NCBI GenBank assembly: GCA_051531975.1
Contig: JAOPTT010000002.1
Span: 601,968 to 665,967 of the forward strand
Source of the DNA: Spirochaetaceae bacterium
GTDB lineage: Bacteria > Spirochaetota > Spirochaetia > DSM-2461
DNA length: 64,000 bases
Reading direction: 5' to 3'
Shown piece after piece: positions 1,757 through 56,545 of the stretch. Position 1 is the stretch's first letter. Every line of letters begins with the position of its first letter. The notes below the pieces were generated by a model that did no database searches, was not told the origin of the DNA, and saw nothing but the letters and a program-made list of their open reading frames with translations. The position numbers and the translations under genes were made by a program.

Positions 1757-1814
1757 TAAGGATCTCCTAAATTATAAGGGCGTGACAAAAAGAATTGAGA
1801 TTTGTTTTTTATAA

Positions 1815-1943
1815 CATTTTCTTCCATCCGGACTGTACCGTTGGTATTGGAATTTCACCAAATCAGTCCAAGAGTAAACCCTTGGAGTCGTGGACTATAA
1901 CCACCAGTTGGGAATTGCTTACGCTCACCCGACCCTGAAAATT
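1815..1943 (-). promoter_or_regulatory. FMN riboswitch (RFN element)
   Basis: Minus strand reads UUUUCAGGGUCGGGUGA...AAUUCCCAACUGGUGGUUAUAGUCCACGA...GAUUUGGUGAAAUUCCAAUACCAACGGUACAGUCCGGAUGGAAGAAAA, matching the RFN consensus, directly upstream of ribD. Confidence 0.95.
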
Positions 1944-1949
1944 GTATTC

Positions 1950-3129: not shown

Positions 3130-3347
3130 TAGTATACACAGAGCCATAAAGAGAACACCTGCGCTATATCGTGAATAATTTCACTATTAATCCCACGTAG
3201 GAGATTATCTTTATATTATTATGCAACTAATTTTATTTTAAATTAGGTGGTTTGTCCTCGTTATTCAAAATAAATAACCCCCTCATAATTAAAATTAATT
3301 ATAAACTTCTTACTTATAACTATATGATCCAAAGTTGAATAACACAA
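3130..3347 (-). ncRNA. Putative small RNA, copy 1 of a two-copy family, coordinates include its promoter
   Basis: Homologous to 51069-51544; 36-nt identical core (3188-3223 = 51136-51171); TTGTGT-17-TATAGT promoter; hairpins that pair best on the minus strand via G.U. Confidence 0.6.
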
Positions 3348-50736: not shown

Positions 50737-51054
50737 ATGAAGAAAATATTTATACTTACACACCCTAAGAAAAAGAAAGACAGATTATTTGAAGAAGCCA
50801 AACGTGACGTAAAAAAGTACATAAAAAGAGAGACTAGCAAAGCATTGCCAGAAGATTTTGATTCTTGGATATTTGATTGTAGATTTGGTAAAACAGAAGA
50901 TGAAGCTAAAACAATAGATAGGAATGATATAACTAAAAATATTGATGCCGCTCAAAAAGAGGATCTGGATTCATTTTATCTGGAAATATTAGCAAGACCT
51001 TGGAATAAACCCGCAAGTGTATTTATTGATAGATCAGAAGAATCTACTGATTAA
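50737..51054 (+). CDS. Conserved small protein (DUF6172-like)
   Basis: MKKIF.LTHPK..RL.E..K.DVKKYIKRE..KALPE..D.W.FDCRFG..SFYLEILA; TTGTTT-17-TAAGAT 6 nt before ATG. Confidence 0.75.
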   Translation: MKKIFILTHPKKKKDRLFEEAKRDVKKYIKRETSKALPEDFDSWIFDCRFGKTEDEAKTIDRNDITKNIDAAQKEDLDSFYLEILARPWNKPASVFIDRSEESTD

Positions 51055-51068
51055 TATAATTTTTTAGT

Positions 51069-51544
51069 AAAAAAAAAGCACAGAGCCTTTAAAAGACTAT
51101 CTGTGCTTACTACTGTGAGTGTTTATATCTCACTATAATCCCACGTAGGAGATTATCTTTATATTATTATGTAACTAACTTTTTTTTTCAATTAGGTGGT
51201 TCACCCTCATTATTCAATAATACAGCCCCCTCATAATCAGAATTTACTTCTAACTTACTAACTAACTTTATTACTAACTAACTAACTTAATTACTAACTA
51301 TTTTTAAAACTAACTTAAAAACTAACTAACTTAAAAAACTAACTAACTAACTTAAAAAACTAACTAACTTAAAAAACTAACTAACTTAAAAAACTAACTA
51401 ACTTAAAAACTAACTAGCGCTATAACTAACTTACAAACTAACTTACAAACTAACTTACAAACTAACTTACAAACTAACTTACAAACTAACAAACTTACTA
51501 ACTAACCTACTTATAACTATAAGCTCCAATATTAAATAGCGCAA
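51069..51544 (-). ncRNA. Putative small RNA, copy 2, with a 5' tandem-repeat expansion; coordinates include promoter and terminator
   Basis: TTGCGC-17-TATAGT promoter (51516-51544); conserved core shared with 3130-3347; GCACAGA/UCUGUGC hairpin plus U9 terminator; no downstream gene on this strand. Confidence 0.65.
51248..51507. repeat. Low-complexity tandem array of CTAA(C) units (UUAG on the minus strand)
   Basis: About five ACTAACTAACTTAAAAA-type units (from 51321), five exact AACTAACTTACA 12-mers (51424-51483), about 28 CTAA motifs in total. Confidence 0.95.
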
Positions 51545-51629
51545 TGTTTTTCTCATTAAATTGTAAAGAAAATAAAATAACACTTCGATTTCTTTAATAT
51601 TTGAAGTGCTAAAATAATAACAGTAATCA

Positions 51630-53120
51630 TTATATTCTACTTAGAAAACTATCCATATATTTGAATATGTTATCAAGTTTAACAGACTCAACTTTTGTCA
51701 TTTCAATATCTACGAATTCTTTTAAATCATTAAGAGGAATACCTTTCAGAGCTGATTTACCAAGCAGTGCTGCTCCAAAGGAAGTTGCTTCACTAATGTT
51801 AGTAATATACACAGGATTATCCGGGTACATTGATGCTATTAGTTTTATATAAACATCGTTATTTCTAAAGCCACCTTCAATATAAATAGGAGAACCTTTT
51901 GGTGCTTTAACTCTATCTATAGATACTTTGGTCTGGATAGCCAATGAGAGATTTAACACAGTATAGGCATATTCGTAGTTCTCAAAAAAACCGGGATTAT
52001 TATTAGTAGTTATTTCATTAGTGGAATAAATCCTCTTATCCTCAATTACCACTGGAGAAGTCTCAGGAAACTGCCCTGCCCCTTTCATTATTCCAGGAAT
52101 AATATATTCAGAATTTTTATTAATTATGGATTGTATTAAACCCATATCAAAATTGGGGTAATCCTCTTTATTGTTAATCTTTTTTATTAGAGTCATATAA
52201 GTTTCAAACTCTAGACCACCCATAAAAATAGCGGTTTTAACAAGATCCTGCTCTGCTGATATGTTATAAAATACAGTTTTCCCTATTTCATCCTTAGAAA
52301 ATGAGTACTCTTTTGTTGGGTGCATTACAACACACCATGTTCCAGTGGAATTCAGTATAAAATTATCATCACCCTTTAAAAGATATGGTATTAACGATGA
52401 GTTAGAATCATGAATCCCTACAGTAACAACAGTATCTTGGCTGAGTCCAGTTAATAACGCCATCTCTTTTGTTATAGTCCCAAGGACCTCGCCTGGATTT
52501 TTAACTTCTGTTGGTAATTTAGATTGAATATTTAGTTTATTAACTACATTTGACCATGTCCAATCTTTAAAATTCCATAAATATGTGTGGCACCCAGTAT
52601 ACGTATAATCAGCAGCAATTTTTCCAGTAAGTTTGTACCCAAAATAACTAGGATACATAAGAATATTTTCTGTTTTTTTATAATCCTCAGGATATCTTTT
52701 CTGAATAAAATAGATCAGTTTTGCTAGGTTAATTAACGGTTTAACCTGGGCTGTTCCTGTCTCTTCCTGAAGTGTATCAGCAGTGCCAACCAGATTATTA
52801 AATTCGTTGTGAAATTTTTCAGTTACTTCATTGGTATATGCTACAACAGGAACTGCAAGATCACCTTTGTTATCAATACAAACACATGTTGCTCCATGGG
52901 TTGAAATAGAGATCGATTTAATGTTGTATTTTTTACTAAATACCTTCAGGTTTTCATAAAACCATCTCTCAATCTCTTTTACATTTTCAACATCAAGTTC
53001 TCCATGATTAACTGTAGGGATTGAACTATAAATAGAATCAATCTGTCTTAATTTATCATCATAAATTACTATTTTTTTATTTGTCTTCCCAATATCCAGT
53101 ACTGCTATAACATATTCCAT
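51630..53120 (-). CDS. rhaB: FGGY-family carbohydrate kinase, probable rhamnulokinase
   Basis: VLDIGKTNKK, STHGA, VGIHDSNSSL, STGTW, IEGGF, ATSFGAA; downstream of rhaA and the aldolase. Confidence 0.75.
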   Translation of the reverse strand: MEYVIAVLDIGKTNKKIVIYDDKLRQIDSIYSSIPTVNHGELDVENVKEIERWFYENLKVFSKKYNIKSISISTHGATCVCIDNKGDLAVPVVAYTNEVTEKFHNEFNNLVGTADTLQEETGTAQVKPLINLAKLIYFIQKRYPEDYKKTENILMYPSYFGYKLTGKIAADYTYTGCHTYLWNFKDWTWSNVVNKLNIQSKLPTEVKNPGEVLGTITKEMALLTGLSQDTVVTVGIHDSNSSLIPYLLKGDDNFILNSTGTWCVVMHPTKEYSFSKDEIGKTVFYNISAEQDLVKTAIFMGGLEFETYMTLIKKINNKEDYPNFDMGLIQSIINKNSEYIIPGIMKGAGQFPETSPVVIEDKRIYSTNEITTNNNPGFFENYEYAYTVLNLSLAIQTKVSIDRVKAPKGSPIYIEGGFRNNDVYIKLIASMYPDNPVYITNISEATSFGAALLGKSALKGIPLNDLKEFVDIEMTKVESVKLDNIFKYMDSFLSRI

Positions 53121-53221
53121 TATTACTCCTATAGTGAAACTAAGCTGCGCTATTTTTTATATAACAACATCAGCTATAATGTAATTAAGGAGCACATATG
53201 ACTTTCATCATACATACCTTC

Positions 53222-54325
53222 CTATTTAGATTGAGAAAATCTATATTTTTCTACTTCCCAGTTTCGTATAAAATCAATTTTATCTTTTGGCATAAATTGA
53301 ACACCACCAAAACTTTCACAATAGACAACAATTTTTACATCATCTATAAATAACTGCTTTGCTTTATTTGCAAGAGACATTGTACTGTTAAAAGCAAACG
53401 CCCCAATGCCAGAAATTACAACTAATCTAGGATTGCTACCATTTTCTTTTACAAAATGAATCAGATTTTCTTTTAAATTATCAAGACTAGATGAATAAAC
53501 AGGTTTGAATCCATAATAGACTATGTGATCAGGAGTTAGAGATAACTTTAATGGAGCAAATGTTTCTTCTGTTTTTATTAAAGATAATATATCACTGTTT
53601 GCAAATGCTGTAACTTCAACACCTTCTATTGTCTCTTTAATGATCTGGGCTACTCTATCTGCGTCTGCCCTGTTTATATGTATCTGATTAACATCAGGAA
53701 ACTTAGTTACATGGTCTTTTATTGATTTAATAATACTGTCATATACTTTATCAATTTCTTCAATATTATGGCCATAAACAAATACACCATGATTCTGAAG
53801 GAATATCATTTCAGGGTACTCTTTACCACTTTTTACATGTCCATCAATTTTATCTTTAACTTCTTTAGACAGAATATAACCAGGATTAGTAACAGGAATC
53901 CAGATAGCCTTATCGCCAAACATTTTAGCTACAGCCTGTTCTCCCTCAATACTGCATGTTAAAGCATTTATTAATGCGGGATGTGTATGCACAACATATT
54001 TATATGGCAACAGAGCGTGCAAAAGTGTTTCTACACTAGGTCTTTTCTCTTTCTGACCCGGGAAACGTGATTCCATTAGATCAACTAGAACTTCTTCTTC
54101 CCTTACATCACTATCTTGTGAATAGGATTTAGACCATATGTTATCAAGTTTTTTAAGATCAACTTTTACAAAGCCATCCTCTGTAATTGTAGCAAGTTCA
54201 GTTCCAGAACCTTTTACATACATAAACTCTTCAGTTTTCCAGGATGTATTACCACCACCTGCAATAACATATTCAGTATCGACACCATATCTATTGGATA
54301 CGGCTATCAGGGTTTCCATACTCAT
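53222..54325 (-). CDS. Class II aldolase, rhamnulose-1-phosphate aldolase (stand-alone RhaE-type domain)
   Basis: AGGGNTSWK, VKGSG, RPSVETLLH, VVHTHP, LQNHG, TPDHIVY, NWEVEKYR; lacks a C-terminal SDR domain. Confidence 0.85.
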   Translation of the reverse strand: MSMETLIAVSNRYGVDTEYVIAGGGNTSWKTEEFMYVKGSGTELATITEDGFVKVDLKKLDNIWSKSYSQDSDVREEEVLVDLMESRFPGQKEKRPSVETLLHALLPYKYVVHTHPALINALTCSIEGEQAVAKMFGDKAIWIPVTNPGYILSKEVKDKIDGHVKSGKEYPEMIFLQNHGVFVYGHNIEEIDKVYDSIIKSIKDHVTKFPDVNQIHINRADADRVAQIIKETIEGVEVTAFANSDILSLIKTEETFAPLKLSLTPDHIVYYGFKPVYSSSLDNLKENLIHFVKENGSNPRLVVISGIGAFAFNSTMSLANKAKQLFIDDVKIVVYCESFGGVQFMPKDKIDFIRNWEVEKYRFSQSK

Positions 54326-55579
54326 CTATTTTCTCCCAGCCAATACTGTCTCTTCATATGTTTGAACATTTTCTATTAGCTCACGATCTGTAGCTACACC
54401 CATCTCTTTACAATATTGATCCCATATTATTCCAAAAGGTTTTGTTTTAACTTCTTCTAAAAGAGCTAATCTACCAAAATTGTTACCATTTTCTTCATAG
54501 GATTTAAGTTGTTTATAAGGTTCTAAAAGTGCAAATAGCAGACCTTTAAGTGAAGCTCTAGATCCTACAGCCCATGCTCCTATTCGATTTAAAGTACCAT
54601 CAAAAAAGTCTAGACCAATATAGGTATTATCAACTTTTCCAGAACGTACAAGTTCCTGCATTAAAGCGTAAATATCATCGTTTAAAGTAACAACATGGTC
54701 TGAGTCCCATCGTACTGGTCTAGAGACATGTAATAACATTTCATCAAGATACTGGTATAGAGATGATATTTTATCTGCAATAGATTCTGTTGGATGAAAA
54801 TGTCCAAGATCCAGGCATAACATTTTATTTCTAGTTAATGCATAACCCATATAAAACTCATGGGAACCAACAACAAAAGATTCACTACCAATTCCAAAAA
54901 GTTTACACTCTACAGCGTCTTTTATCTCTTTATCATCTAATTCAAGTGCAAAAACCTCATCAAGAGACTCTTTTAGTATTGTTCTGTGGTCCATTCGACT
55001 TACAACACTGTCTTTTGCACCATCTGGAATCCATAGATTATGAACTGAAGGTGACCCCTGTTCTCTACCAAAATATGCTGTAATCTCTCTGGCTCTTTTA
55101 ACGTGGTCTATCCAGAAGTCTCTAACTTTTTTATCTTTACTACTTAGAGTAAAACCTGAATCAGCCATAGGATGAGAAAAGCATGAAGCATTAAAATCAA
55201 GTTTTACACTGTTTTTTTTAGCCCATTCTACCCATGTTTTAAAGTGTTTTGGTTCTATCTGGTCTCTATCTACTTTTTCACCTTTAAAATCACCATAAAT
55301 AGCATGTAAGTTCAGTCTATGTTCCCCAGGAATAAGGCTATATACTTTTTCAAGATCCTTTCTTAATTCTTCCACATTTCTTGCTTTACCAGGATAGTTA
55401 CCTGTTACCTGAATACCACCACCTGATAGTTCTGAATCCGCAGTTTCAAAGCCACCAACATCATCACCCTGCCAACAGTGAATTGATAAAGATATCTTTT
55501 TTAGTTTTTCTATAGCTGATTTAACATCAACACCTATCTCTTCGTATTGTCCTTTCGCGTAATCGTACATATTAGTCAT
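54326..55579 (-). CDS. rhaA: L-rhamnose isomerase
   Basis: SIHCWQGDDVGGFE, TGNYPGKAR, NLHAIY, FGIGSESF, HVSRPVRWDSDH; start moved to ATG 55579 behind an AGGAG SD. Confidence 0.96.
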   Translation of the reverse strand: MTNMYDYAKGQYEEIGVDVKSAIEKLKKISLSIHCWQGDDVGGFETADSELSGGGIQVTGNYPGKARNVEELRKDLEKVYSLIPGEHRLNLHAIYGDFKGEKVDRDQIEPKHFKTWVEWAKKNSVKLDFNASCFSHPMADSGFTLSSKDKKVRDFWIDHVKRAREITAYFGREQGSPSVHNLWIPDGAKDSVVSRMDHRTILKESLDEVFALELDDKEIKDAVECKLFGIGSESFVVGSHEFYMGYALTRNKMLCLDLGHFHPTESIADKISSLYQYLDEMLLHVSRPVRWDSDHVVTLNDDIYALMQELVRSGKVDNTYIGLDFFDGTLNRIGAWAVGSRASLKGLLFALLEPYKQLKSYEENGNNFGRLALLEEVKTKPFGIIWDQYCKEMGVATDRELIENVQTYEETVLAGRK

Positions 55580-55675
55580 AATATAACTCCTGATTCTCTT
55601 TAATATATATTCATTATCAATCCGGAATCTATTTCTCACCTTGATTATACCGTCAATTAATAGCATAATTCCGTC

Positions 55676-56545
55676 ATGAGAGAAGAGCACCATTTACTTG
55701 GGGAAAACTTTTTTACTAGTGGTGAGATCCCTTTAAAAATCTTACATCGTGATCCACAGCCGGAATATCCTATCCATACCCATGATTTTTCTGAGTTAGT
55801 TATAGTACTAAAAGGTCAAGGTACTCACTTCACCCATAAAAATGATTTTAAAGTGCAGGCTGGGGACCTTTTTGTTATAAATGGGGACTTAGCCCACGGA
55901 TATAAAGACCTGGACAATCTTGTTTTAATAAATATTTTATTTGATATGCAGGCCCTGAAATTACCAAATTTTGATATAGGTCGATCCCCAGGTTTCCATA
56001 CACTTTTTACTATTGAACCACTTTTACGAGAGGATTCTAAATTCTCCAGTCGTCTGAAACTGGATTATAAAGAGATAGATTTTGTTATTAATTTAGTAAA
56101 AAAAATGGAAGATGAATTAAAAAACAGGCAAGATGGATATCACTATTTAACTGTCTCTCTTTTTATGCAGTTAATCGCTTATTTGTCCAGGTGTTATTCT
56201 GATAAATCACGTAACGATAGTTCGAGTCTCTACCAACTGGGGGAGACTATAAGTTTTATAGAACACAATCTGGATAGGAATATAACTGTTAATGAACTTC
56301 TTAATATTTCCCATATGTCAGAGAGCAGCCTTCTCCGTGCATTTAAAAAAATTACAGGGTCCTCCCCTCTAAATTTTCATTTAAAAAAAAGAATAGACAA
56401 GTCGTGTAAAAAACTTATAGAGAGTAATGATTCCATAACAATGATAGCCTATGATATTGGATTTAGTGACAGTAATTATTTTTCCAGGCAGTTTAAAAAG
56501 ATAAAAGGTGAAACTCCTGGAACTTACCGAAAAAGAAGCCGGTAA
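55676..56545 (+). CDS. RhaR/RhaS-like AraC-family activator
   Basis: PQPEYPIHTHDFSELVIV cupin, GFSDSNYFSRQF HTH; divergent from rhaA; TTGATT-17-CATAAT 6 nt before ATG. Confidence 0.88.
   Translation: MREEHHLLGENFFTSGEIPLKILHRDPQPEYPIHTHDFSELVIVLKGQGTHFTHKNDFKVQAGDLFVINGDLAHGYKDLDNLVLINILFDMQALKLPNFDIGRSPGFHTLFTIEPLLREDSKFSSRLKLDYKEIDFVINLVKKMEDELKNRQDGYHYLTVSLFMQLIAYLSRCYSDKSRNDSSSLYQLGETISFIEHNLDRNITVNELLNISHMSESSLLRAFKKITGSSPLNFHLKKRIDKSCKKLIESNDSITMIAYDIGFSDSNYFSRQFKKIKGETPGTYRKRSR

Follow-up and report, generated by a model that had tools for sequence, protein, structure and literature searches.

Introduction

The sponge small RNAs CsrB and RsmZ carry the GGA motifs of the Csr/Rsm system in hairpin loops; the motifs are conserved among orthologs and their protein partner is known. 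Simple sequence repeats (SSRs) in transcribed 5' leaders of bacteria are known from the surface-protein genes of a few pathogens. In Haemophilus influenzae hmw1A, the gene of a large adhesin, a repeat in the transcribed 5'-UTR governs expression in a length-dependent manner, where the 7-nt units pair with a G-rich partner sequence to form a long hairpin, which RNase III cleaves (PMC12721329). Repeated UAG-type triplets are the targets of TRAP, which binds 11 (G/U)AG repeats (PMC3064811), and of HutP, which binds XAG-rich sites (PMC2425495). Musashi-1 recognises (G/A)U1-3AGU and UAG (PMC12342889), and the single-RRM protein RbpB of B. thetaiotaomicron binds three repeats of a UAG-containing 8-mer composed of G, U and A only with a Kd of about 5 uM (bioRxiv 10.1101/2021.04.27.441718). 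The ribosome standby effect of unstructured 5' tails saturates at 16–18 nt (PMC5934652).

The subject of this report is a TTAG-rich array in the genome of a Spirochaetaceae bacterium (GenBank assembly GCA_051531975.1), located in a stretch of 64,000 nucleotides that was analysed as a whole and is referred to as the window. The original prediction regarded the array as a multivalent decoy for a UAG-binding protein.

Results

Organisation of the locus

The array is part of a minus-strand unit composed of the following features, to which a second copy of the unit in the same window is added. Coordinates were read against sequence rulers, and an error of a base or two is possible.

51539..51544, minus strand: -35-like hexamer (pattern TTG-N3, 17-nt spacer, TA-N3-T; family pattern)
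51516..51521, minus strand: -10 box (sequence and family promoter alignment)
51248..51507, minus strand: TTAG-derived degenerate tandem array in the 5' leader (motif count, TRF)
51431..51490 (approximate bounds), minus strand: promoter-proximal block of five exact 12-nt units (GUUAG spacings, sequence)
51308..51416, minus strand: block of 17-nt units, 6.3 copies, 89% matches (TRF)
51233..51247, minus strand: short conserved leader segment from array to Shine-Dalgarno (SD) box (aligns with the leaders of array-less copies)
51226..51232, minus strand: purine-rich SD-like box (family alignment)
51188..51217, minus strand: tiny ORF of 9 codons plus stop, TTG start, peptide MNNEGEPPN (family alignment)
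51135..51156, minus strand: hairpin H1 (7 pairs, 6 compensatory, 97.1% of cells paired)
51115..51133, minus strand: hairpin H2 (5 pairs, 5 compensatory, 95.2% of cells paired)
51069..51106, minus strand: intrinsic terminator, stem and nine-U run (9 pairs, 5 compensatory, 96.9% paired)
3136..3347, minus strand: paralog B of the whole unit, with no array (covariance model, 128 bits; family alignment)

The promoter is of the sigma-70 type, and its spacing places the predicted transcription start at about 51508-51510. A simple promoter and terminator scan missed both elements, as the -35 of this copy is sub-threshold and the terminator loop exceeds the length rule of the scan, and the two calls rest on the family alignment. 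The array begins 9 nt past the -10 box, 1–3 nt past the predicted start, and ends 16 nt ahead of the SD-like box, hence between the predicted start and the conserved core as originally described. Downstream of the terminator is a convergent gene (DUF6172) and no regulated operon.

Comparison with described systems

Like hmw1A, the locus has a short-unit repeat past the promoter, in a 5' leader that is probably transcribed, and the repeat number may vary here too; unlike hmw1A, the unit is 4 nt long and C-free, has no complementary arm and precedes an RNA of ~180 nt with a 9-codon ORF. With the Csr/Rsm sponge RNAs it shares a small transcript with many copies of a short motif, which could titrate a protein, but the array contains no GGA although a CsrA gene is present, occurs in 2 of 20 family copies and is appended to an RNA that has a conserved SD box, ORF and hairpins of its own. 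Repeated UAG triplets in 5' leader RNA are also a property of the Bacillus TRAP and HutP leaders, whereas here no TrpBP or HutP domains were found, the triplets are irregularly spaced, and the terminator is followed by a convergent gene. The Musashi-type consensus fits 27 of the 28 array sites and the genome encodes one canonical single-RRM protein; in contrast to Musashi-1 and RbpB, this spirochaete RRM was placed in no specificity class, and RRM genes are present in array-less relatives too. A weakly structured repeat tail ahead of an SD box and start codon recalls the standby sites, yet 260 nt is far above 16–18 nt and the 3' end of the array is predicted to pair with the start codon. No description of a transcribed SSR on a small RNA was found in the literature searched.

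Size, composition and repeat structure of the array

The 260 nt at 51248-51507 contain, read on the minus strand, 28 TTAG motifs, all preceded by G and 27 followed by T, and the base counts are T129, A74, G55 and C2. The reported 28 UUAG motifs in nearly C-free sequence were thus recovered, as was the abundance of stop codons, which are frequent in all six frames. The scarcity of C is a consequence of the repeat unit and no separate fact. At the genome-wide rate 1.6 TTAG are expected per 260 nt (an excess of ~17x), and the array is the densest 260-nt TTAG window of the whole 5.46-Mb genome, the runners-up (16, 13, 11 and so on) being protein-coding Leu-Asp-rich repeats. Only 2 of the 417 TRF rows of the source genome combine a period of at most 6 with at least 8 copies. 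The array is real and very unusual for the source genome.

Two internal blocks had been described. Consecutive GUUAG motifs are exactly 12 nt apart six times in succession, confirming the exact 12-nt block with its five units, and the block of ~17-mers at 51308-51416 was retrieved by TRF with the period and matches listed above. The statement that all units keep GUUAG while the spacers vary was accurate as to the irregular spacing (4, 8, 12, 13 and 16 nt) but overstated the integrity of the units, since TRF describes the whole array as period 4 with 63.2 copies and 64% matches, and only 28 of ~63 four-base registers are intact. To judge by the sequence, the apparent spacers would be decayed TTAG copies that were afterwards amplified again in higher-order units of 12 and 17 nt.

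Contigs from a DNA run agree with segments of the two blocks and of the two flanks without a single differing letter, and an assembly artefact is therefore an unlikely source of the array; no single one of them spans it, and the exact copy number is that of the assembly. Loose contig ends and one joint hint at further array variants. Two joints, 51156>51339 (X2, side 24) and 51299>51467 (X1, side 20), were set aside, as their sides are too short to trust.

A conserved small RNA family

With a covariance model of the unit, 20 copies were located in 17 of the 38 genomes of the family, in 4/4 genomes of genus g1, 4/4 of g3 and 9/11 of g4. The family helices are 93.9% paired with compensatory change at 17 of 23 pairs, a support reached by none of 500 shuffles, and slid controls are 29–50% paired; the alignment used had been fitted to the covariance model, which favours structure, but the slid controls still separate clearly. 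The distance from the -10 box to the SD box is 34–38 nt in 16 of the 19 copies scanned, from which it follows that the leader is of constant length apart from the array, which is inserted into it, and the array-less copies have a matching promoter pattern at equal distance from the core. All 20 copies have the SD-like box 8–10 nt ahead of an in-frame tiny ORF of 8–18 codons, with Pro at codon 7 in 18 of them and synonymous differences at Pro and Glu codons.

With its own conserved promoter, covarying helices and terminator, the unit has every appearance of an independent small RNA gene, and its core, with a conserved SD box and tiny ORF, is probably more than a plain non-coding small RNA. The family, in which a strong SD box, a conserved tiny ORF and covarying hairpins are combined, was previously unannotated. 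At the gathering threshold of Rfam release 15 the locus had no match, the only one in the window being an FMN riboswitch elsewhere, and relaxation to E values up to 10 over 50900-51800 gave three chance-level matches of 15–17 bits, of which one falls within the array and the other two on the hairpin of the terminator. No tRNA or tmRNA was detected by ARAGORN.

A role of the core as cis-attenuator was considered and dropped, as convergent genes directly follow copy A (the array-bearing unit of the source genome), the copies of genomes G001 and G003, and others. All four g3 copies have a same-strand gene starting 18–35 nt past the terminator, and one of the two such genes scanned matched Flg_hook.

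Pattern scans of contig collections were also made. A 22-nt core pattern matched three MAG contigs in the genome-contig collection, identical to genomes already compared; in the metagenome-contig collection the H1 pattern had 0 matches and the tiny-ORF pattern retrieved one g3-like, array-less copy. No additional array-bearing copies came from these scans.

Distribution of the array

Only 2 of the 20 family copies carry an array, namely copy A (51248-51507) and that of G002, a second species of the genus. Paralog B possesses the promoter, a 36-nt leader, the SD box, an 11-codon ORF, H1, H2 and a degenerate terminator devoid of a U-run. As 18 of 20 copies, paralog B included, are array-less, the array is dispensable for whatever function the RNA has. 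In the tree, copies A and B are sisters (support 95/93), which fits gain of the array after duplication or its repeated loss; the branch of A, with the array, is very short (0.008) and that of array-less B is long (0.33).

The units of the G002 array are perfect TTAG, and the assembly is interrupted in them, leaving two contig ends; the array starts 23 nt past the -10 box with the 5' hairpin kept, as against 9 nt in copy A. When 13 window proteins from around A and B were compared by tblastn with G001, G002, G003 and four g3 loci, no shared neighbours emerged, the sole match being one response-regulator domain. Given the differing start points and the lack of common gene neighbours, the two arrays may have arisen independently.

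Four consecutive TTAG with at most one mismatch occurred in 3 of 401 genomes of the class, comprising the two arrays and one chance-level site, whereas the reversed control pattern had 9–19 matches in four class genomes, so that other tetranucleotide arrays exist. Unrelated repeat motifs in relatives, which would have spoken for a neutral repeat, were not encountered: relatives had either the TTAG motif or none. The two species differ fully in the form of the array, with perfect TTAG units in one and a decayed array in the other; from these perfect repeats and the loose contig ends, repeat number appears evolutionarily labile.

Transcription and predicted folding

Two independent studies yielded RNA-library contigs that cross the junction of core and array: X4 record 25 covers 51129-51296, with 1 other letter, whereas X2 record 9 covers 51157-51327. 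Such contigs show neither strand, ends nor level, and DNA carry-over in the libraries is possible. RNA runs X2–X4 have no cover at 50950-51111, at 51436-51750 and on the 12-nt block, and no finding is drawn from missing cover; cover from X3 is confined to the 17-nt block, with contigs of 45–66 nt that are perhaps from other organisms. The small shares seen for runs X5–X22 are taken as evidence of neither habitat nor expression. The placement of the array in a minus-strand transcription unit agrees with these junction-crossing contigs and with the conserved promoter and core on its two sides.

The array was predicted to have an MFE of -30.5 kcal/mol (z -1.84) with an MFE frequency of 0.0004, meaning no defined fold. 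The expectation of a largely unstructured RNA held to this extent only, because in the full RNA the bases of the array are predicted to be unpaired with a mean probability of 0.39, like those of the core (0.38), owing to weak A-U and G-U pairs. Attaching the array in silico lowered the unpaired probability of the start codon from 0.38 to 0.05, the 3' end of the array being predicted to pair with it, and raised that of the SD box from 0.38 to 0.67.

Candidate binding proteins and sites

The inventory of RNA-binding proteins in the source genome comprised one RRM protein, two cold-shock-domain (CSD) proteins, two KH proteins and one CsrA, with no Hfq, TRAP or HutP. The TRAP model PF02081 had no match in the five genomes scanned and the HutP model PF09021 none in the source genome, control genomes scoring as expected, and TRAP and HutP, earlier invoked as binders of UAG repeats, thus have no counterpart found in this genome. 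The suggested RRM, KH and cold-shock proteins do exist in it, but RRM genes are found in array-less relatives as well. A sequence search of the PDB with the single-RRM protein returned many matches, those of a canonical RRM, and no one specificity class.

Enrichment of GUUAG in mRNA leaders, proposed as a trace of the target, was not borne out. None of the 100-nt leaders had at least 3 GUUAG, a weak negative given the crude gene calls; GTTAG was modestly biased to the sense strand (169 versus 130 antisense), and GTTAGT was not (55 versus 50).

Discussion

Starting from the observed anatomy, distribution and uniqueness of the array and its co-occurrence with the core, we favour, at a probability of roughly 45%, its being a lineage-specific hypervariable TTAG SSR expansion in the 5' leader of a conserved small RNA gene, which acts in cis or not at all. 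We infer an origin by slippage, through which a run of TTAG would have arisen at the leader; this run would then have decayed by point mutation, and the 12-nt and 17-nt higher-order units would have been re-amplified. Co-transcribed with the core, the array would extend the leader from ~30 to ~290 nt and, in copy A, take the place of the 5' terminal hairpin of array-less copies. Because of this lengthening and replacement, the most probable effect, if any, on RNA level or translation would be exerted in cis, on small-RNA stability, processing or the translation-initiation context, with repeat number serving as a heritable yet labile dial of the VNTR or contingency type. At contingency loci, tandem repeats of short units are found in the promoter, the 5' leader or the 5' part of the coding region, and here an array of period 4 lies between the -10 and SD boxes, in the 5' leader.

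Some observations weigh against the cis reading. That one motif recurs on one RNA in two species could be due to selection for the motif itself, as in the sponge reading, rather than to a hotspot of mutation. The array also sits on the better-conserved copy, as the branch lengths of A and B indicate, which is as compatible with a useful array as with one that is tolerated. Finally, bacterial genomes tend to lose useless DNA, and this array has lasted long enough for decay and re-amplification.

A somewhat unlikely alternative is that the array is a neutral hitch-hiker, in which a slippage-prone seed, lying in a leader that is transcribed at a high level, grows and shrinks with no effect on fitness or RNA function. 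Its absence from most copies, including paralog B, the decay pattern with 64% matches at period 4, the perfect microsatellite of G002, typical of recent slippage, the differing insertion points and the other tetranucleotide arrays of the class (9–19 control matches in four genomes) would all be expected under neutrality. Yet a 260-nt insert at the 5' end that removes a conserved 5' hairpin is unlikely to be inert on an RNA of ~180 nt, and recurrence at one locus out of hundreds of genomes, persistence long enough for decay and re-amplification, and a carrier that is the conserved copy are harder to accommodate.

The decoy first proposed would act in trans, ~28 GUUAG sites on a flexible, C-free RNA titrating a single-strand RNA-binding protein that prefers UAG-type motifs, such as a single-RRM, cold-shock-domain or KhpA/B-type KH protein, with repeat number setting the dose. 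Although the motif density is ~17x expectation, TTAG arrays are confined, among 401 class genomes, to this one RNA in two species, with differing insertion points, the better-conserved paralog bears the array, and RNA-library contigs include it, we consider this improbable, given that 18 of 20 family copies lack the array and only 28 of ~63 registers are intact, as under neutral decay, with irregular GUUAG spacings. As candidate partners the genome has one canonical single-RRM protein (C6:270788-270997) besides two CSD and two KH proteins, and Musashi-1 and RbpB are examples of RRM proteins able to read UAG-type motifs; RRM genes, however, do not track the arrays, being two in G001 and six in G010, both array-less, and 0 found in array-bearing G002, which is 81% complete. 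TRAP, HutP and Hfq genes were not found, CsrA is present but the array has no GGA, and the crude mRNA leaders offered no candidate regulon. Even more doubtful is the extended version in which selection and slippage repeatedly build UUAG arrays at the 5' end of a single conserved tiny-ORF RNA of marine spirochaetes, as a multivalent sponge or scaffold tunable by repeat number, for instance for the single-RRM protein.

Very improbable, finally, is a role of the array as DNA, bent or protein-bound past the promoter or with internal promoter-like sites, or as plus-strand antisense arising by read-through from the DUF6172 gene. A TTG-N3 / 18 nt / TA-N3-T match does occur within the array, and the plus strand of the terminator hairpin lacks a U-run, which makes read-through from the DUF6172 gene possible. 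That match is nevertheless a loose pattern in sequence of T, A and G only, no DNA-binding candidate is evident, and promoter, SD box and ORF, terminator U-run and G-U helix pairs (8 U-G and 7 G-U cells at two helix pairs) hold on the minus strand only.

Having paralogs A and B, with and without the array, in one genome provides a clean natural experiment, which can address how leader repeat number relates to small-RNA stability, translation and protein binding. Were the array a sponge, it would be the first bacterial protein-sponge RNA with valency set by a hypermutable microsatellite, and would link microsatellite hypermutation to post-transcriptional titration. If it is not, the locus is a well-delimited case of how repeats turn over within a bacterial non-coding gene, besides drawing attention to a new small-RNA/tiny-ORF family.

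Sequence and repeat structure of the array

The TTAG-repeat tract at 51248-51507 (minus strand), read as GUUAG in RNA, holds 28 TTAG units in 260 nt, a repeat number taken from one short-read-type assembly; the genome-wide rate predicts 1.6. A genome-wide count makes it the densest TTAG window of the 5.46-Mb assembly, the runners-up lying within Leu-Asp-rich coding repeats. G precedes all 28 units and T follows 27 of them, and since the repeat unit has no C, the tract is nearly devoid of this base (two C in 260 nt). Tandem Repeats Finder (TRF) reads the whole array with period 4 (63.2 copies, 64% matches), 51308-51416 as a period-17 block (6.3 copies, 89% matches), and the array a third way with period 16; the exact 12-nt block is marked by six consecutive 12-nt spacings. 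The original prediction was correct in its TTAG count, near absence of C, exact 12-nt block and block of about 17-nt units, while its variable spacers are better read as decayed 4-nt units, later re-amplified as higher-order units of 12 and 17 nt.

The transcription unit carrying the array

The array lies in a 575-nt gap separating two convergent genes, a DUF6172 gene (plus strand, ending at 51054) and an FGGY sugar kinase gene (minus strand, ending at 51630), the last of a rhamnose-type cluster. A complete small transcription unit, designated copy A, runs from promoter to terminator on the minus strand of the gap. Its parts were read by hand from sequence rulers, hence the coordinates are approximate:

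51539-51544, minus strand, -35-like hexamer
17 nt, minus strand, spacer between -35 and -10
51516-51521, minus strand, -10 box
51507-51248, minus strand, array
51247-51233, minus strand, conserved leader segment (15 nt)
51232-51226, minus strand, Shine-Dalgarno (SD)-like box
51217-51188, minus strand, 9-codon ORF with TTG start, peptide MNNEGEPPN
51156-51135, minus strand, hairpin H1
51133-51115, minus strand, hairpin H2
51106-51069, minus strand, terminator with nine U

From these coordinates the array starts 1-3 nt past the predicted transcription start. Copy A sits just past the last gene of the catabolic cluster (51630-56545), which comprises the FGGY kinase, a class II aldolase-domain protein, RhaA isomerase and a divergent AraC-type regulator. 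Elsewhere in the window, an FMN riboswitch is found at 1812-1946 (minus strand; score 93.5 bits, gathering score 66.2).

Of 22 sequencing runs listed for the stretch, 13 are RNA libraries that contain parts of it; four runs (DNA run X1, RNA-library runs X2, X3 and X4) were compared with the locus. Contigs from RNA libraries of different studies span the junction of array and core, the conserved unit 3' of the array (X4 record 25, 51129-51296, one other letter and one gap; X2 record 9, 51157-51327, six gaps); such contigs show presence only, carry no information on strand, ends or level, and may stem from DNA carry-over. Contigs of X1 reproduce both flanks, and sections of the two blocks, letter for letter. 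At one loose contig end a promoter-like leader is apparently joined straight to the 17-nt block, and at another the array is apparently joined to a different SD-bearing leader; these ends are only suggestive of related array variants. In the marine RNA libraries X2 and X3, short contigs resembling the 17-nt units (window 51301-51408) reach summed depths as high as about 350, many times the 3.6 of the core-carrying contig, and their loose ends are unlike this locus; similar repeats of other organisms or loci may be expressed there.

A conserved RNA family

A second copy of the core, copy B, occurs at 3136-3347 (minus strand). BLAST turned up relatives in 7 of the 60 related genomes searched, and a covariance model built on nine copies recovered 20 copies, distributed over 17 of 38 genomes in the spirochaete family (4/4 in genus g1, 4/4 in g3, 9/11 in g4 and 0/19 in g2, g5 and g6 together); one extra copy lies on a metagenome contig. 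In a 22-row alignment fitted to the model, one row being a weak extra match, the three helices are 93.9% paired with compensatory change at 17 of 23 pairs. None of 500 shuffles matched this covariation, and slid controls were 29-50% paired. The G-U pairs in the helices, the promoter, the SD box with its ORF and the U-run assign the core to the minus strand. No Rfam match was found for the core/array locus, and the core represents an RNA family that is unannotated and comes from a single family of spirochaetes.

An SD-like box followed by a short in-frame ORF (8-18 codons) is common to all 20 copies; the encoded N-terminus is conserved, and codon 7 specifies Pro in 18 of them. Differences among copies at the Pro and Glu codons are synonymous, which suggests that the tiny ORF is translated. 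Among 19 copies scanned, 16 have 34-38 nt between the end of the -10 box and the SD; in the other three the loose pattern matched within the array (copy A) or at another place (G011a and G019). Across the core copies (51069-51247 and 3136-3347, minus strand; loci L019-L038 and L058) the SD is strong and the N-terminus usually has two prolines, for which polyproline stalling is one idea. In predicted ensembles of the array-less RNAs, the main partner of the SD is the 5' arm of H1 in both paralogs:

51226-51232 with 51147-51152, minus strand, predicted SD pairing in copy A
3278-3284 with 3200-3204, minus strand, predicted SD pairing in copy B

These models hint at an SD-sequestering switch within the core.

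In all four g3 copies (L019, L021, L022 and L023) a same-strand gene of 255-265 aa begins 18-35 nt past the terminator. Two of these genes were scanned; one matches a flagellar hook-length control domain (Flg_hook, E 9e-8), the other gave no Pfam match. The RNA family might be linked to flagellar regulation; a CsrA gene is present in the window's own genome (G000).

Distribution of the array

Of the 20 core copies, only copy A and one belonging to a second species of the genus, G002, carry an array. Contig C97 of G002 ends, immediately upstream of the core, in a run of at least 16 perfect TTAG units, and contig C65 ends in a similar run that follows immediately on a family-type promoter and 5' hairpin; the two ends could not be joined, so the unit count is a lower bound. 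The G002 array starts 23 nt past the -10 box, behind the kept hairpin, and that of copy A 9 nt past it, at the would-be hairpin position. The two loci share no neighbouring genes.

Copies A and B are sisters in the core tree (support 95/93), with branches of 0.008 and 0.33 (about 40 times longer) respectively; the positions of G001, G002 and G003 are not resolved. The array would thus be either old and lost three times, or arisen twice, and under both histories it appears on the better-conserved paralog. Copy B, which has a Cupin_5 gene on one side and, on the other, a lipoprotein-like gene containing a CarboxypepD_reg domain, has neither array nor U-run past the terminator stem and two conserved ORF residues changed; it may be a decaying duplicate.

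Four consecutive TTAG units (one mismatch allowed) were found in three of 401 class genomes sampled: G000 with this array, G002 with 26 overlapping matches in its array, and G056 with one isolated site. The reversed control pattern, a different tetranucleotide repeat, gave 19 matches in G143, 18 in G163, 13 in G309 and 9 in G126, so long arrays of another unit exist in other spirochaete lineages of the class. Period 6 or less with at least eight copies occurs in only 2 of 417 TRF rows of G000. Together with the three genomes in 401, this indicates that the tie of TTAG arrays to this RNA is not chance; it could have arisen through mutation, from a seed within a strongly transcribed leader, or through selection. 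Other G000 arrays with periods that are not multiples of three lie at C8:136982-137079 (6-nt unit, 16.3 copies), C6:568324-568498 (26-nt unit, 6.7 copies) and C18:63669-63851 (28-nt unit, 6.6 copies).

Predicted structure and candidate partners

Alone, the array folds with an MFE of -30.5 kcal/mol (z -1.84, MFE frequency 0.0004), values that indicate no defined structure. To this extent the expectation of a largely unstructured RNA holds; its bases are, however, no more unpaired than the core (mean predicted unpaired probability 0.39 and 0.38 in the full 441-nt RNA), and TTAG units are predicted to pair among themselves through A-U and G-U. With the array attached, the predicted unpaired probability of the start codon falls from 0.38 to 0.05 (partner 51274-51276) and that of the SD rises from 0.38 to 0.67.

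RRM_1 genes number one in G000, two in G001 and six in G010, while none turned up in the incomplete assemblies of G002 (81%) and G003 (71%); they do not follow array presence. The G000 protein is a canonical RRM. Hfq and TRAP domains were not found in any of five genomes, nor HutP in G000, which encodes one CsrA, two CSD and two KhpA/B-type KH proteins. The anticipated enrichment of GUUAG in mRNA leaders was not clearly seen: by crude gene calls, GTTAG is slightly commoner in sense in 100-nt leaders (169 vs 130), GTTAGT is not (55 vs 50), and no such leader has three or more GUUAG sites. A UAG-reading protein for the array is possible but not indicated. In G001 one of the two RRM genes lies about 19 kb from the array-less core copy (C1:851087-851258 and 870238-870447), probably by coincidence, since the two are on different contigs in G000.

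Discussion

The original prediction took the array for a decoy titrating a UAG-binding protein. Csr/Rsm sponges present their motif in loops and conserve it across orthologs; the array differs in motif, loop presentation and ortholog conservation. It resembles TRAP and HutP leaders in its UAG triplets (PMC3064811, PMC2425495), yet the cognate proteins were not found encoded here. Musashi-type recognition (PMC12342889) and Bacteroides RbpB, which binds a G/U/A motif (bioRxiv 10.1101/2021.04.27.441718), indicate that an RRM could read sites of this type. The locus-specific recurrence of the TTAG unit and its place on a conserved paralog would suit a sponge; against this, the array is absent from 18 of 20 copies, GUUAG spacing is irregular, over half of the units are decayed, and no matched protein or regulon was found, which makes a sponge improbable.

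Action at the DNA level or on the plus strand is very unlikely. A 260-nt tail is hard to explain as a ribosome standby site, whose effect saturates at 16-18 nt (PMC5934652). Among known systems the nearest is a repeat in the transcribed 5'-UTR of H. influenzae hmw1A, which differs in its unit, its defined RNase III hairpin and its large regulated gene (PMC12721329). The reading tentatively preferred takes the array for a hypervariable expansion, derived from a microsatellite, within the transcribed leader of a small, conserved RNA with a tiny ORF. As a variable leader it would act in cis on the stability or translation of that RNA (probability about 0.45) or, less probably, be neutral and have no effect.
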